Below, in pieces: positions 9,001-21,000 of a DNA stretch of 23,072 bases. The position numbers are program-made. Each line of letters starts with the position of its first letter. The first letter of the stretch is position 1. This DNA comes from a virus. Its lineage: Duplodnaviria; Heunggongvirae; Uroviricota; Caudoviricetes. The stretch covers positions 1-23,072 of IMG/VR virus record IMGVR_UViG_2667527789_000007; one strand, written 5' to 3'.

Positions 9001-12000
9001 GGGTGGAAGTAAAGGCGGTGGTGATACCAAAGTAAAACCAACAGCAGCGCAAATAGCGCAGGAAGAAGTGGCCTGGAAAGGGTGGCAGGATTATCAAAAA
9101 ATCCTCCGTCCGGCAGAAGATAACTTCATGGAAAAGGTCGATGACCTGAACAGTGAGCAGCAGTACGAAAATATCGCTGGCACAACAAATCTTGGTTATC
9201 AGAAACAGTTTGGTGAAGCGCGAAGGGAGCTGGCGGGTAATCTTGCTCAGTCCGGCGTTGACCCATCCAGTGGTCGTTTTAATGCGGTAATGGATGCAAA
9301 TCAAAGCGACCAGGTGACCGGGCAGATTGACACAACCACACGGGGGCAGGTGTCGCAGGCAGATAAGTATGTTGCCGGGCTACAGGATGTTGCTGCTCTC
9401 GGTTCTGGTCAGAAGGCGGATGCGTTACAGAGTTTTAACTCTCTGGCAGACAGCAGTCTGGCAAAAGCTAAATCGGATGCACAGGCGGCGTTTACGAAAC
9501 AGCAGGGGCGAGCCTCTCTTGTTGGCGCTGGTCTGGGTGCGGCAGGTGCATATGTGATGCATAAGGCTGGCGGTAGCGGAGGAAGTGGCGGTGCTAAAAC
9601 ACCTGGCACTGGCGCTAATGCCATTCAGCATCAGGCTCAGAACTGGAGACTGTGATTATGGAGTACGGTAAATACGAAACACTTGCAAGATACGGTTATA
9701 CCGGAGCAGCCCGCCCTCAGGGGGACTGGCAGACATCCGCAGCGCTGACCCGCCAGCAATACGACGACTGGCGCACCAGATATTTACCCCGTGTAGCAAG
9801 GCTGGCTGACCTTGGGGAGAACAACAGTCTGATGAATGCACAGCTTGCACGGGTGGGAGGCCTTGCCACTTCCAGTCTCCGTACAGCGCAGATGGCGCAG
9901 GATAACCAGATGGCGAGATACGGGGTAAACCGCCCGGATAATCCCGACAGTAATACGCTGGGGTTACGTAATGCCCTGGCAATTGCTGGCGCGAAAAATG
10001 GTATCCGTGAAGCCGAACAGGATCGCCAGATGAATATTCTGACGGGGGCTTCTGCACCGGCAAGACAGAAACTGAGTGTTGGCGGCCAACTGGTGGCAGC
10101 GTAAGGGGGCAATATGGGATACGGTTTACTGGATATTGCAAATCAGTCGCGGCGTGAGGCATTACAGGGAATAAGTGACGCAGACAGACGACGCACAGAG
10201 ATTGAGGCATCAAATAAACAACTGGCTGCTCAACAGAAAGCTCAGAAAAAACAGAATATCGGTACGGGCATTGGTACGGGGGCGGCTATTGGCGCATCCG
10301 TTGGTGGTCCTGTTGGCGCTGTTGCTGGTGCAGTAATTGGCGGCATTGCTGGTTCTTTGTTTTAAGGAGTGGTGAATGAGCGGATTTGCACAGGGGTTAC
10401 TTGCCGGATTCAGCACTGTTGACCAGGCAATGACCCGTCGTAAGGAGCTTGGTTTGCGAGAAGCACAGCTTGCTCAGCAACAGAAAAATAACGAGCGCGA
10501 TTTTGAATTTGCGCAGTCTCAGTTTGAACATAATAAAGACGTTGATCAGCGGAACTTTGATTACAGAGCCAAAGTTGATGACCGCAATTACACACTGCAG
10601 GAAAGGGAGTTTAACGCCAACCAGAATTACCGGAATGCGTCGCTGGGGATGGAACAGCAACGACTCCAGTTGCAGAAATACAACCAGCGACGGCTTGAGT
10701 ATAACGATATGCTGGCGCGCGATCAGCCTGTGATGGCGGCGCTGGGAAAAGCGATTGATGCGGGTGACCATGATGCGGCTTCTCATCTGTTCGGTAAATT
10801 ATCGGACGCCAATCCGCTTAAGATGATGTCAACGGTAGGCTATGCTGCGAAAGCGGGTCAGGCCGTGAACAACCTGCAGAAAATCTTTGATGATAAGCCG
10901 GACAGGGCGATTGCTTCGCTGAATACCCCGGAAAATCTCGATGTGCTTTCCGGCGTGTTTGCCCCGGAACTACAACAGCGTATTGGCATGCCTGATTCAA
11001 CCGGGGAGAAAACGATAAAAGAGGCCAGGATTGGCAGTATCGTACCGGCGCAGCAGGAAGGGTACGTACTTATTGGCCTTGATCTCACATACAGCGATGG
11101 CTCCACCGCGCATAAACCTGTAACAGAATACGGCAGTGCGCACCCTGATGATCAAACCGTGCTGGCGATACCCGTTGATAAGGCTATCGCTCAGGTCAGG
11201 GATCGCAGCAAATTTGCAGAGATATCGAAAAATTATGGTTATTTTATGCCGAAGCAGCAGGGACTTTCTCTGAAAGAGCTTCAGAAGGGGGCCAGCAACG
11301 TAGCGGCGGACGCGATCAAGAATGGCGGTAATGCTCAGGCTGCGGTGGATGAATATTATGCTGCGACTGGTTCACAACCGCATCAACAGAAAATTCAGCA
11401 ACAAAAACTTCAGCAACAGGTTATCAACTGGGCGGGAGATGATCCTGATAAGCTGTCATTTGCCAGAAATGTAGCGGCCCGTCAGCCTGAAATGCTGGAA
11501 CCTCAGAATCAGAAATTGCTGGAGAACGGGTATGCGAATTTTCTCCGTATTCAAAAGGCCAGGGGGGAACAGGCCAGAGATGAAAGTGCTTCATCTGCAT
11601 CTCAGTTTATCCGTGGACTGAAACAGAATTACGCCCAGTAATTCACGATATTCCATTAATACCATTTCCTGATGCCCGGCCATTGTGCCGGGTTTTTTTA
11701 TGGAGTCTGTATGGCCTATTCAGAGGAACAGCGTCCTGAGGCGCAACTCGGTAACCAGAATCGTAACAGCCTGAACATTCAGCAACCCGGCGAAACTGAC
11801 AGCTATGAATCATTTTTCTCTAATCCGAATCGCTGGAAGGATAACAGTACGTCGTTCAGCCTGGGCGATGTATTGCCAACAATGGGTAAAGGTTTCGCCC
11901 AGTCCGTCCGGGGAACAGGGGAAATGGCCCGTGGACTCGGTGATGCGATGATTCAGAGCCCGGTAAAAACAGGGGCGCGTATTTTAAATGAGTTCAGCCG

Positions 12001-18000: not shown

Positions 18001-21000
18001 GATCCGCAGTCGCAAAAATGAAGTGGGTAACGCCTTCCTGAAGCTGGTGCAGGATAATCCCGATAAGGATTACTGGCAGGTATTCACTGATGACAGACCG
18101 GATACCATGCGTGTGATTGCAGAGCGCAAGGACCAGGAAACTGGTGAAACCATTCGCGAAGTTGTCGAGCGTCCGGTGGCGATGGCAATGATGGCAGACC
18201 GGTACTTCACCACCAAAAAGAACGGCAAAACGTACTACATCAAACTCCATGATCCGCGCCTGATGCGTGCGATGAAGAATATGGGACCGGAAACCAGTAA
18301 CGCAGTAATCCGTACGCTGGGGAAAGTTAACCGCTTCCTGGCAACGGTGAACACGTCGTATAACCCGGAATTCCTGGTCAGTAACTTCATCCGTGACGTG
18401 CAGACAGCGGTGATGAATCTGAAGGCGGAGCAGGGAAGGAGCGACGGCAAACTGAAAGGGCTGGATAACTTATCCGCACTGGCTGTGGTGAAAGACAGCC
18501 GTTCTGCTATGTCAGCCGTATACGCCAGTCTGCGTGGCAAAAACCTCACGGGCAAAGGTGCGCAGTGGCAGAAGGTGTGGAAAGAGTTTGTTGAGGACGG
18601 AGGTAAAACCGGCTGGTTTAACATGGGTGACCTTGAAGGCCAGCAGAAGGAAATGGATCGCCTTGTATCGCTGGCGAAGGGAGGATGGAAAGGCCAGAGT
18701 ATCGGTGCATGGAATTCGTTCCTTAACCTTGTCGAGGATGCCAACGGGGCGGTTGAAAATGCTCTGCGTCTTTCTGCCTATAAACACGCCCGTGATGCCG
18801 GTTTGTCACGCCAGCAGGCGGCGTCTCTTGCCAAAAACATGACGGTGAACTTTAATCGTCGTGGTGAGCAGGGAGCGCTGATGAACTCGCTGTATATGTT
18901 TGCCAACGCCAGCATTCAGGGGACGGCAAACCTGGTGAGAACGCTCGGACATCTTAATGGCGACGGGCCGCTACTGGAGCGCCTTCGCTGGAAGAATCTC
19001 AATGTACCGCAGAAAATCGCGCTTGCAGCTGTGGGAGCGGGTTATCTGCTTGGCTCGCTTAACCGCAGTGTTGCGGGGGAGGATGATGACGGGGTTAACT
19101 GGTATGACAAAGTGCCGTCTCATGTGAAAGAGCGTAACCTCGTCATTATGAAATCGGTGTTCGGGGGCAAGGCCGGAGAGTACTGGAGTATTCCTCTGCC
19201 TTACGGGTACAACGTTTTCTTCCTGCTCGGGCATACCGCTGAAGGTGTGGCGGCGGGTGACCTGACGGCGTCCCGTGCTGCCGGTAATGTTGTCGGTGGT
19301 ATCCTAGGGGCATTCAGCCCGATCGGCAGTGAGACGTCGGAAACACTGTCCGGGGCATTGCTGAAAAATGCAGCGCCGACCATTCTGCGTCCGTTTGCGA
19401 ACCTTGCCATGAATGAAAACTTCATGGGGGCGCAGATTTACCAGGAGAACATACCGTTTGGTACACCAAAACCTGACAGTCAGCTGGGAAGACGTTCAAC
19501 GCCAGAAGCGTACAAGGCGTTTGCATCCTGGCTGAATGCGTTCTCAGGTGGCAGCCAGTACCGTCCCGGCGCGGTGGATGTTACGCCGGAATCACTGAAA
19601 TTCTGGATTGACTATATCTCTGGCGGGACCGGGCGCTTCATTTCCAAAACCACGGATGCGGCGGTGAAATCGCTGAATGGTATTGATATACCGGAGCAGC
19701 AGGTGCCTTTCCTGGGGAAAATTTCAGGTGAGGTGATGCCGTATGCAGACCAGCAGAAGATGTACGACCGGATGACGGAGGTTGCGCAGTACCACGCAGA
19801 GCTGAAGAGTCTGACCGGTGCAGAAAGAACGGCGTTCATTGACGAGAACAACGGAAAATTGTCGATGAACGGGCTTATGCAGGATACCCGGAAGAGACTG
19901 AAGGATTTGCGTAAACAGCGCGATGCCATTTATGCCGACAGTTCTCTCAGTCTGGCGCAGCAGGCGGCGATGGTGAAATCGGTAGAGCGGGATATGAAGG
20001 TTGCCGTGGATCGCTTTAACCGCGAGTACAACAAAAAAGTGGGAGTGGAGTAACAGAACATGCCCCGTACGGAAGTGCGGGGCTGATTAAGAAATAAACA
20101 CTCATTGACCTGTAATAACTGGAGCTATTAACATATAGTCAGAAAGAGCATTTCATGTGATACAGAGAGCCGATTTATGTTTAATGAAGAAAAAGTTGCG
20201 CAAATGGCAGCGTATTTGCTGAAAAAGCATGGCGGATCTATGCGTTTCATTAAGCTGAAGCAGCAACGGTAATGGCGAATAGCATTTATGAGCAAAATAA
20301 TCTTGATATGTTATTAGGCGATCTGATGTAACCGGGATGATGTTCACCCCTTATCGCCGGGGAACAATACCGGCAATCAGAATTGCGGATGGAACTATTC
20401 AGGCCCACGATGATATCGATGAGGAGTTTTTTCAGCCAGTATTGGATGGCTTTCTTATATCCAAATATACGCCATTTGACATCTTCCACGCCCTGAAGGA
20501 CGGGGTTTTACAGCGCACCGGATAAGATTCGGTGTTTTGTTGAAAAATACTGTGATAACAAACAGAAAACCCGTCAGTAAGACGGGCTTAGCAAGCTGGG
20601 ACGGTTACTTTAATAATTTCAGTGCCTTTACATCCACTTCAACACTGCTCAGGTCTTTATCAATTTCACCCTCAATTCTTACTTTGTCTTTCGGAGAAAC
20701 ATTCTGACCGGCCCATATGCTGTCATCGATATCCGTGACAATTGTCCCGCTATTGTCACGAAACTCATAACGTTCATCACCCACTTTTTTAACGATGCTC
20801 CCTTCAAGGATAACCCATGCATCATCCTTCAGTTCTTTTGCCTGCGCTACTGTTGAACGCTCTGCTTCAGGCCCTTGGAAACCGCCCTGCTGTGCAAAAA
20901 CGCCAAAAGACACACCGGAAATAAGTGCTGCAATCAATACCTTTTTCATTCATAGTCCTCTTTCAGAGATGAACATTCAAACAGCATTTTCAGTATGGTA

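Follow-up and report, generated by a model that had tools for sequence, protein, structure and literature searches.

Short-tailed Shiga toxin (Stx) phages move Stx genes among Escherichia coli strains, and the way in which their DNA crosses the cell envelope is poorly understood. We analyzed a 23,072-nucleotide (nt) stretch of DNA from a virus of the Caudoviricetes (IMG/VR record IMGVR_UViG_2667527789_000007, positions 1 to 23,072; hereafter "the window"), which carries an open reading frame (ORF) for a giant protein of 2,780 amino acids (aa). This giant is probably a packaged and ejected polyvalent protein of the short-tailed Stx phages (Sepvirinae), in which an N-terminal domain (N1) and a C-terminal module (C-module) would form a chassis for enzymatic cargo.

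Several described systems are close to this locus. The orthologs of the gene are 933W L0134, Sp5 ORF80 (ECs1242) and phi24B gp47. In Sp5, where all late genes were subjected to deletion, ORF80 (2,793 aa) is essential; the deletion mutant packages DNA into normal-looking heads, which bind no tail-fibre antibody, and yields no infectious, tailed particles (Mondal et al. 2016). The definitions of the LPD5, LPD1, MuF_C and LPD38 domains come from "polyvalent proteins" that phages and conjugative elements encode (Iyer et al. 2017). The virion RNA polymerase (vRNAP, gp50) of phage N4 is ejected, probably in an unfolded state, and its N-terminal domain, with membrane-spanning helices predicted at aa 224-278, goes into nanodiscs; it was suggested that this domain ties the polymerase, once ejected, to the inner membrane and the gp51 tunnel (2026 N4 paper). 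The gene, its family, its essentiality in Sp5 and its presence in phi24B virions have already been described, and our additions are modest, i.e., homology of N1 to the N-terminal domain of N4 vRNAP, a second zincin-like domain without a Pfam model, a new label for the MuF-C domain, a C-module fold that has no solved relative and reaches into an archaeal virus, and a family-wide scarcity of cysteine (Cys). They make the ejection model more testable for a protein that is essential, takes up approx. 14% of the phage coding capacity and is an obvious candidate for the envelope-crossing step.

The gene and its orthologs

An earlier description made without database searches (hereafter the sequence-only reading) had proposed an uninterrupted ORF of 2,780 aa at 11711-20053, and both the ORF call and the translation bear this out; the ORF scan of the window found an open plus-strand frame without interruption from 11672 to 20053. 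Translation almost certainly begins with the ATG at 11711, as a GGAG lies 5 nt 5' of it, the earlier in-frame ATG is buried in a terminator-like hairpin, and the phage PA2 ortholog in RefSeq begins at the same MAYSEEQ start. All Cys codons of the frame fall within the 13 codons before 11711, an extension also found in the 933W annotation. In the segment corresponding to 11672-11710, 933W L0134 and the 2,811-aa frame of phi24B both begin ahead of the start that is probably the genuine one.

Megablast matched 186 phage records, every one with at least 80% of the gene at 90-99% identity and every one from a short-tailed Stx or Stx-like phage that infects E. coli or Shigella. The closest match was phiSTEC1589-Stx1c (99.2% identity, with a 100% identical flank downstream of the gene). 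The phi24B gene showed 96.7% nucleotide identity over its full length and is found in the same place, after the same four small genes. Although no named family could be assigned from the sequence alone, a match to PHROG 616 covers the whole protein and the gene has already been named and studied (as L0134, ORF80 and gp47); it is currently annotated as "LPD5 domain-containing protein".

The window protein is 13-14 aa shorter than its phi24B, Sp5 and 933W counterparts because of an indel in the linker at aa 501-600. When the protein was compared with those of PA2 and 933W in bins of 100 aa, identity was 82-87% in four bins (aa 1-100, 501-600, 801-900 and 1801-1900), with the 14-aa indel falling in the second of these, as compared to 94-100% in all other bins. 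The divergent bin at aa 1-100 is located upstream of N1 and the other three cross module boundaries, a pattern that would fit flexible linkers separating folded "beads". The N-terminal region was correctly described as Gly/Ala-rich (24-32% Gly+Ala over aa 100-500), and Pro makes up 9-11% of aa 700-900. On the other hand, the "GLPxPD" repeats that had been reported proved to be only two hexapeptides (at aa 797 and 813, 16 aa apart) and one related site, and Tandem Repeats Finder found no repeat array underlying this region. The linker that contains both matches is weakly conserved beyond enterobacteria.

Placement of the gene in an "accessory region" was not upheld, as the gene comes after those for the nozzle, the needle and the tail fibre and closes a late structural operon of the Sepvirinae type. 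We also considered whether the gene marks the end of the prophage, as suggested by phage PA2, and rejected this possibility, since phage DNA runs on downstream as it does in 933W.

Presence in the virion and relation to the tail

In purified phi24B virions, gp47 was represented by 12,608 spectra and 422 peptides covering 93.6% of its reading frame and ranked second by spectra among the virion proteins; spectral counting, which carries an error of 1-3 fold, put its copy number at 11-35 per virion, with a mean of 19 (2026 phi24B preprint). In the gel data, 62% of the gp47 spectra came from the four slices above the slice in which the 80-kDa portal peaks; gp47 would therefore be largely unprocessed or present in big fragments. 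The whole polypeptide is present in virions of the near-identical phage phi24B. The peptide rows searched in the supplement, in which the gel slices are pooled, contained neither the N-terminal nor the C-terminal peptides that were sought. As 186 phage records carry the gene and peptides are found across the phi24B frame, the ORF is not an assembly artefact, one of two outcomes that would have spoken against its being a genuine giant virion protein.

phi24B gp47 appears in no cryo-electron microscopy (cryo-EM) map or model, and diffuse density in the adaptor lumen is gone in ejected particles (2026 phi24B preprint). Because the protein is absent from every map, the authors labeled it an internal ejection protein, and the mass spectrometry together with the absence from the maps points to a location inside the capsid.

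These data also bear on the hypothesis that the giant is a tail-assembly or structural protein (i.e., a scaffold, a tape-measure-like factor or a plug) that delivers no cargo. This view is favoured by the position of the gene, which ends the tail gene block, and by the Sp5 deletion mutant, whose heads bind no anti-tail-fibre antibody and from which the authors concluded that the protein "participates in tail assembly" (Mondal et al. 2016). However, the phi24B tail was fully modelled without gp47 (portal, two adaptors, nozzle, needle and lateral fibres), approx. 19 copies of a 305-kDa protein are too big for a 22-nm tail, searches of Pfam, PHROGs and PDB sequences yielded no tape-measure or fibre family, the domain set is enzymatic, and N1 is homologous to an injected protein (see below). 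Overall, we consider a tail role without cargo improbable. A portal-bound internal protein that is required for stable tail attachment would reconcile the cargo and tail views. Strong full-length homology to a tape measure, a tail fibre or a known toxin, the other outcome that would have contradicted the sequence-only reading, was found neither in Pfam, PHROGs and NCBIfam nor among PDB sequences.

Homology of the N-terminal domain to N4 virion RNA polymerase

N1 ends in a conserved motif that resembles a glycine zipper (G413/G417/G421) and also has a conserved run of hydrophobic residues (aa 182-204). The domain is located at or near the N-terminus (start at residues 1-233) in 42 of 43 distant giants, the exception being P0224 (start at residue 593). 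N1 segments of distant homologs matched PHROG 2206 (N4-like vRNAP) at approx. positions 173-450 (E from 2e-7 to 7e-9), and a hidden Markov model built from 44 N1 segments matched aa 115-446 of N4 gp50 at 78.5 bits. When aa 100-460 of N4 gp50 were excised, the score was 89.6 bits as compared to at most 6.5 bits in 2,000 composition-preserving shuffles. Profiles of the zincins, LPD5, MuF-C and the C-module did not match N4 gp50, so that N1 alone is common to both proteins. Similarly, no RNA polymerase family was found in the giant in Pfam or NCBIfam, and the match to PHROG 2206 is limited to the N-terminal region. The giant thus shares homology, through N1, with a proven ejection protein. As Iyer et al. 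(2017) reported that homologs of the N-terminal region of N4 vRNAP were found only in related phages and the phi24B preprint does not mention vRNAP, the link between N1 and N4 is apparently new with regard to the literature searched.

The likeness to N4 gp50 is not limited to this homology (N4 aa 115-446 and giant aa 60-470). Both are Cys-free giants (approx. 3,000-3,500 aa) that are held in a T=9 podovirus capsid and go unseen by cryo-EM, and both are encoded by the last gene of a small-to-giant ejection series. Conversely, the Stx giant has no RNA polymerase domain, N4 carries approx. 4 copies per virion as compared to approx. 19 estimated for phi24B gp47, and N4 virions assemble without vRNAP while Sp5 requires ORF80.

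Predicted enzymatic domains in the central region

Four Pfam domains were found above their gathering cut-offs, i.e., LPD5 (E = 6e-45), LPD1 (9e-24), MuF_C (1e-17) and LPD38 (3e-48). As all four are domains defined on polyvalent proteins and the phi24B ortholog is abundant in virions, the proposal of a packaged polyvalent protein made by the sequence-only reading was well founded. The chain combines at least two unrelated effector-type domains and is phage-encoded among virion genes; like the polyvalent proteins of Iyer et al. (2017), it is a multi-domain giant with metallopeptidase (MPTase), MuF-C/PBECR, LPD5, LPD1 and LPD38 domains. It differs from the Dar proteins of phage P1 in that these are accessory while the Stx giant is essential (in Sp5). 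A search with aa 1030-1860 against 1.84 billion cluster representatives retrieved 6,966 families with E ≤ 1e-3, of which 2,590 had E ≤ 1e-30; most of the 150 best were proteins of 2,000-5,700 aa.

The central region begins with the M0 segment (motif I-x-DFGE-xxx-GA-x-K) followed by LPD5, with conserved residues that include D892, G894, K902, R955, R1161, N1165, R1168 and G1170. The unit from aa 886 to approx. 1436 (M0, LPD5, the HEWFH domain and LPD1) also exists alone as a protein of approx. 560 aa, and the start of M0 coincides with the start of these stand-alone proteins. For example, in Gemmobacter (locus L004:10001-11725) the LPD5-zincin-LPD1 unit is a stand-alone protein of 574 aa that adjoins genes for TniQ, TniB, a transposase, PcfJ and an SNF2-like giant of >1,700 aa; given this setting of transposon and conjugative-element genes, the unit appears to serve conjugative or transposable elements as well.

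Two HExxH motifs had been reported and are exactly where they had been placed (HEWFH at aa 1270, nt 15518-15532; HEIIHH at aa 1537, nt 16319-16336), each inside a conserved zincin-like domain and each kept in distant homologs. Two such motifs are not expected by chance (expected number 0.034; reached in 8 of 20,000 shuffles), and both are located in predicted helices.

In zincin-like domain 1, H1249, H1270, D1277 and E1361 were invariant among 51 sequences with 23-62% identity, and E1271 and H1274 were kept in at least 90% of these. A widespread phage-type MPTase clade is characterized by a conserved His that ends strand 2 and an Asp three residues past HExxH (Iyer et al. 2017), and domain 1 matches this signature exactly, with both the upstream His and the Asp at +3. 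As the stretch assigned to LPD1 by Pfam holds the invariant E1361, it would represent the Glu-bearing C-terminal part of this zincin.

Zincin-like domain 2 is a separate domain of approx. 180 aa, which is present once or twice in many giants. Among 122 non-redundant segments, H1537 was conserved in 96%, E1538 in 99%, H1541 in 93% and E1593 in 99%, and these residues form what, judged by the alignment, is a gluzincin pattern; E1361 and E1593 may thus be the third metal ligands of domains 1 and 2, respectively. In the structure model of domain 2, strands are followed by the HExxH helix (predicted local distance difference test 70-88). Pfam searches with ten domain 2 segments gave just sub-threshold matches to M48, M76, Zincin_1 and DUF5700, and a match of the protein to NCBIfam CLCA_X (151 bits) was below the family cutoff of 260 and was taken only as a pointer to a zincin. 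A Foldseek search of the two-zincin model against the PDB found no match with E < 1. The top structural matches for the model spanning both zincins were MtfA, anthrax lethal factor, SprT and minigluzincin-type proteases. The Stx zincins differ from these proteases and from the minimal gluzincins in being embedded in a chain of 2,780 aa, and no sequence relation to them was found in the PDB; against PDB chains the whole protein gave no hit, and the central and C-terminal profiles gave only low-complexity noise.

The MuF-C domain scored 64 bits as compared to the Pfam cutoff of 27.6 bits. H1738 was conserved in 91% and S1802 in 89%, and Y1804 and Y1824 were kept as well. MuF-C belongs with the PBECR clade, whose members are predicted metal-independent RNases with a His and a Ser/Thr and a BECR fold (Iyer et al. 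2017). The 2026 phi24B preprint called MuF-C a peptidoglycan-degrading metallopeptidase; this label is not supported by the conserved residues, which identify a predicted RNase rather than a metallopeptidase, and the true metallopeptidase candidates are the two HExxH domains.

The enzymatic content is relevant to a second alternative, proposed by the authors of the phi24B preprint, in which the giant only builds a conduit, i.e., a tail extension across the periplasm with a peptidoglycan-digesting metallopeptidase and no effector role in the cytoplasm. The precedent of podoviruses with three increasingly large ejection proteins, the same gene order in the window and the resemblance of N1 to a membrane-inserting domain are all in agreement with a conduit. 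As indicated above, however, the supposed metallopeptidase is a predicted RNase with a BECR fold, and the top structural matches of the zincins cut proteins and not the cell wall. Homologs swap in enzymes directed at the cytoplasm (ADP-ribosyltransferase, methyltransferase, PBECR1), no part of the giant is like the solved T7-type or P22-type ejection proteins, and the upstream proteins are unlike N4 gp51 and gp52. We therefore hold a pure conduit to be unlikely, albeit less so than a tail role without cargo.

A third alternative is that the giant is an unpackaged AAA+ ATPase, defence or superinfection-exclusion protein expressed by the prophage. A COG1483 (AAA+) hit was reported by Mondal et al. 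(2016), and the prophage morons lom, the YadA-like gene and hok/sok are nearby. The sequence-only reading had argued against a helicase- or ATPase-type defence protein from the lack of a Walker A motif, and rightly so, since a motif scan found no Walker A anywhere in the 2,780 aa, Pfam and NCBIfam showed no ATPase family, and PADLOC assigned the protein to no defence-system family. Moreover, the protein is massively present in purified phi24B virions and the gene is co-oriented with the late operon. We regard this alternative as very improbable.

The C-terminal module and a possible delivery chassis

The C-module (915 aa) was confidently predicted as a single large, mostly helical fold, for which no solved relative was found. 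It is located at the C-terminus of every giant that bears it, including those of Vibrio phages of approx. 60 kb (41% identity), of GP4-like Ralstonia phages (4,219 aa for the Gerry ORF) and of Bacillus and Burkholderia phages. Moreover, the archaeal Methanosarcina virus MetMV (L007:2584-11592) encodes a 3,002-aa ORF with a C-module (593 bits) and a zincin of the domain 2 type. T=9 capsids are common to phi24B, GP4 and N4-like phages. In an Amphritea genome (L003:10001-12946) the C-module occurs alone as a protein of 981 aa. The small element that encodes it also has genes for an integrase, an excisionase and an S24 repressor but no virion genes nearby, and might represent a satellite or the remains of a prophage.

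Giants annotated as "DarB-like antirestriction" proteins (PHROG 10089) are alike at both ends, as N1-type homologs match positions 313-598 of this profile and the LPD38 part matches positions 4259-4538 of 4647. On the other hand, the methyltransferase-helicase cargo that defines DarB is missing in the Stx giant, which has no Walker A and no methyltransferase or helicase family.

As N1 is N-terminal in all carriers but one, the C-module is always C-terminal and the middle varies among homologs (with ADP-ribosyltransferase, methyltransferase, PBECR1 or LPD3), we hypothesized that a constant chassis surrounds variable cargo, which in the Stx giant would comprise M0-LPD5, two zincins and a MuF-C/PBECR RNase. 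In its fullest form, this hypothesis describes a widespread delivery chassis for Cys-free giants that would pass unfolded through podovirus tails, in which N1 anchors the chain at the inner membrane as in N4 vRNAP, the C-module packages or conducts it, and after ejection the zincins cut the fast-evolving linkers to free the RNase and the LPD5 enzyme into the cytoplasm. We put this forward tentatively, as a possibility that is clearly less probable than packaging and ejection of the giant as such. If true, the chassis would join the Stx phages, GP4-like Ralstonia phages, Vibrio phages, DarB-like giants and a Methanosarcina virus, with an N-terminal element in common with the Schitoviridae.

Scarcity of cysteine

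The giant has no Cys in 2,780 aa, as compared to approx. 19 expected from the other phage ORFs of the window (Poisson P ≈ 4e-9). The 148 distant representatives total 429,874 aa and contain just 81 Cys; of the 127 giants with at least 2,000 aa, 103 are Cys-free. The MetMV giant has 3 Cys, while its neighbours have 16 in 1,803 aa; similarly, N4 gp50 (3,500 aa), gp51 and gp52 have none, as compared to 33 in 2,853 aa (1.2%) for the N4 replication proteins. Cysteine is mentioned neither by Iyer et al. (2017) nor in the 2026 N4 paper. The simplest reading of this pattern is that it may reflect selection against disulfides in proteins that are stored extracellularly and would have to cross a narrow tail and the oxidising periplasm in unfolded form.

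A model for ejection and the evidence against it

For a packaged, ejected polyvalent protein, we propose that the giant would be made late and that roughly 10-35 copies would be packed in the T=9 capsid. At infection, the giant would most likely be expelled through the tail, ahead of or with the DNA, as an unfolded chain of beads on a string. N1 may then anchor the chain at the inner membrane, and the C-module might, as a guess, take part in packaging or in conduit formation. After delivery, the zincins would most plausibly cleave either their own chain, with the weakly conserved linkers between modules as candidate sites, or a host target, and the predicted RNase, if active, could contribute to a role in anti-defence or host takeover. 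If N4-like anchoring and self-processing are real, these phages would offer a tractable, temperate and genetically accessible model for the packing of a 300-kDa protein and its threading through a 3-4 nm channel, and would also reveal enzymes that a phage places in the cell before any gene expression.

A number of observations weigh against this model. The virion data come from a preprint and from the 96.7%-identical phi24B instead of the window phage. Approx. 19 copies of a 305-kDa protein, a spectral-count estimate, represent a large load. The DNA-filled Sp5 heads without detectable tail fibres were read by their authors as a tail-assembly defect, and as N4 assembles without vRNAP, loss of cargo is no obvious cause of tailless heads. 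No peptidoglycan hydrolase domain was found in the protein in Pfam or NCBIfam. Finally, no conserved 19-mer reaches a Kyte-Doolittle score of 1.6 (the best values being 1.38 in N1 and 1.25 in the C-module); as there is no classical transmembrane score, we do not claim that the giant is a constitutive membrane protein.

Neighbouring genes

The coordinates of the giant, its domains and the other features of the window are listed in Table 1.

Table 1. Features of the 23,072-nt window discussed in the text
Feature	Position (nt)	Strand	Details
563-aa protein	1799-3490	+	PHROG 511 "internal virion protein"
YadA-like ORF (putative trimeric autotransporter adhesin)	7220-8416	+	398 aa; YadA head repeats and YadA membrane anchor
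Companion gene, phi24B gp51	8924-9655	+	PHROG 611
Companion gene, phi24B gp50	9652-10104	+	PHROG 596
Companion gene, phi24B gp49	10114-10365	+	PHROG 594
Companion gene, phi24B gp48	10376-11641	+	PHROG 601
Terminator-like hairpin and GGAG	11674-11705	+	Hairpin 11674-11693, with T-run 11674-11700; GGAG 11702-11705
Giant ORF	11711-20053	+	2,780 aa and stop; ORF call, translation, full-length PHROG 616 match
N1 (Gly/Ala-rich)	11888-13120	+	aa 60-470; homologous to N-terminal domain of N4 virion RNA polymerase
Linker region (acidic, Pro-rich)	13121-14365	+	aa 471-885
M0 segment and LPD5	14366-15268	+	M0 aa 886-1036; LPD5 aa 1037-1186 (Pfam, 6e-45)
Zincin-like domain 1	15269-16018	+	aa 1187-1436; HEWFH at aa 1270-1274; Pfam LPD1 aa 1347-1426
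Zincin-like domain 2	16088-16630	+	aa 1460-1640; HEIIHH at aa 1537, E1593; not covered by any Pfam model
MuF-C/PBECR domain (predicted metal-independent RNase)	16916-17185	+	aa 1736-1825; Pfam MuF_C, 1e-17
C-terminal module	17306-20050	+	aa 1866-2780; includes LPD38 (aa 2463-2668; nt 19097-19714)
YgiW-like BOF (bacterial OB-fold) protein	20605-20949	-
sok antitoxin RNA (hok/sok-type module)	21222-21393	-	Rfam RF01794, 104 bits
DUF551 protein	21515-22150

The PHROGs matched by the four companion genes upstream of the giant carry no functional annotation. In phi24B virions, gp48, gp50 and gp51 are estimated at approx. 30, 36 and 22 copies, respectively, and none was modelled by cryo-EM (2026 phi24B preprint); in addition, Sp5 ORF79, the ortholog of the 421-aa protein (gp48), is essential and involved in morphogenesis (Mondal et al. 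2016). Three of the four proteins are Cys-free, and all four are probably further internal or ejection proteins. Given the copy numbers, the absence from the maps and the essentiality of ORF79, the region 8924-20053 looks like a cassette for internal or ejection proteins that runs from small to giant. In the window, proteins of 150, 83 and 421 aa precede the giant, an order that looks like those of T7 and N4. As BLASTP of the 421-aa and 150-aa proteins showed no similarity to N4 gp51 and gp52, however, the analogy to "three ejection proteins" is one of order and size only. The supplement of the phi24B preprint tags gp48 as "Transcription factor?" despite its essential Sp5 ortholog ORF79.

The "internal virion protein" label that PHROG 511 gives to the 563-aa protein is misleading here because cryo-EM shows the ortholog in phi24B, gp57, to be the hexameric tail nozzle. 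The YadA-like gene is located between lom and the cassette, where PA2 and 933W have other, shorter genes, and it is likely a lysogenic-conversion moron. Just 3' of the giant gene are the BOF gene and the sok RNA, as is also the case in 933W (L0136 and hokW/sokW).

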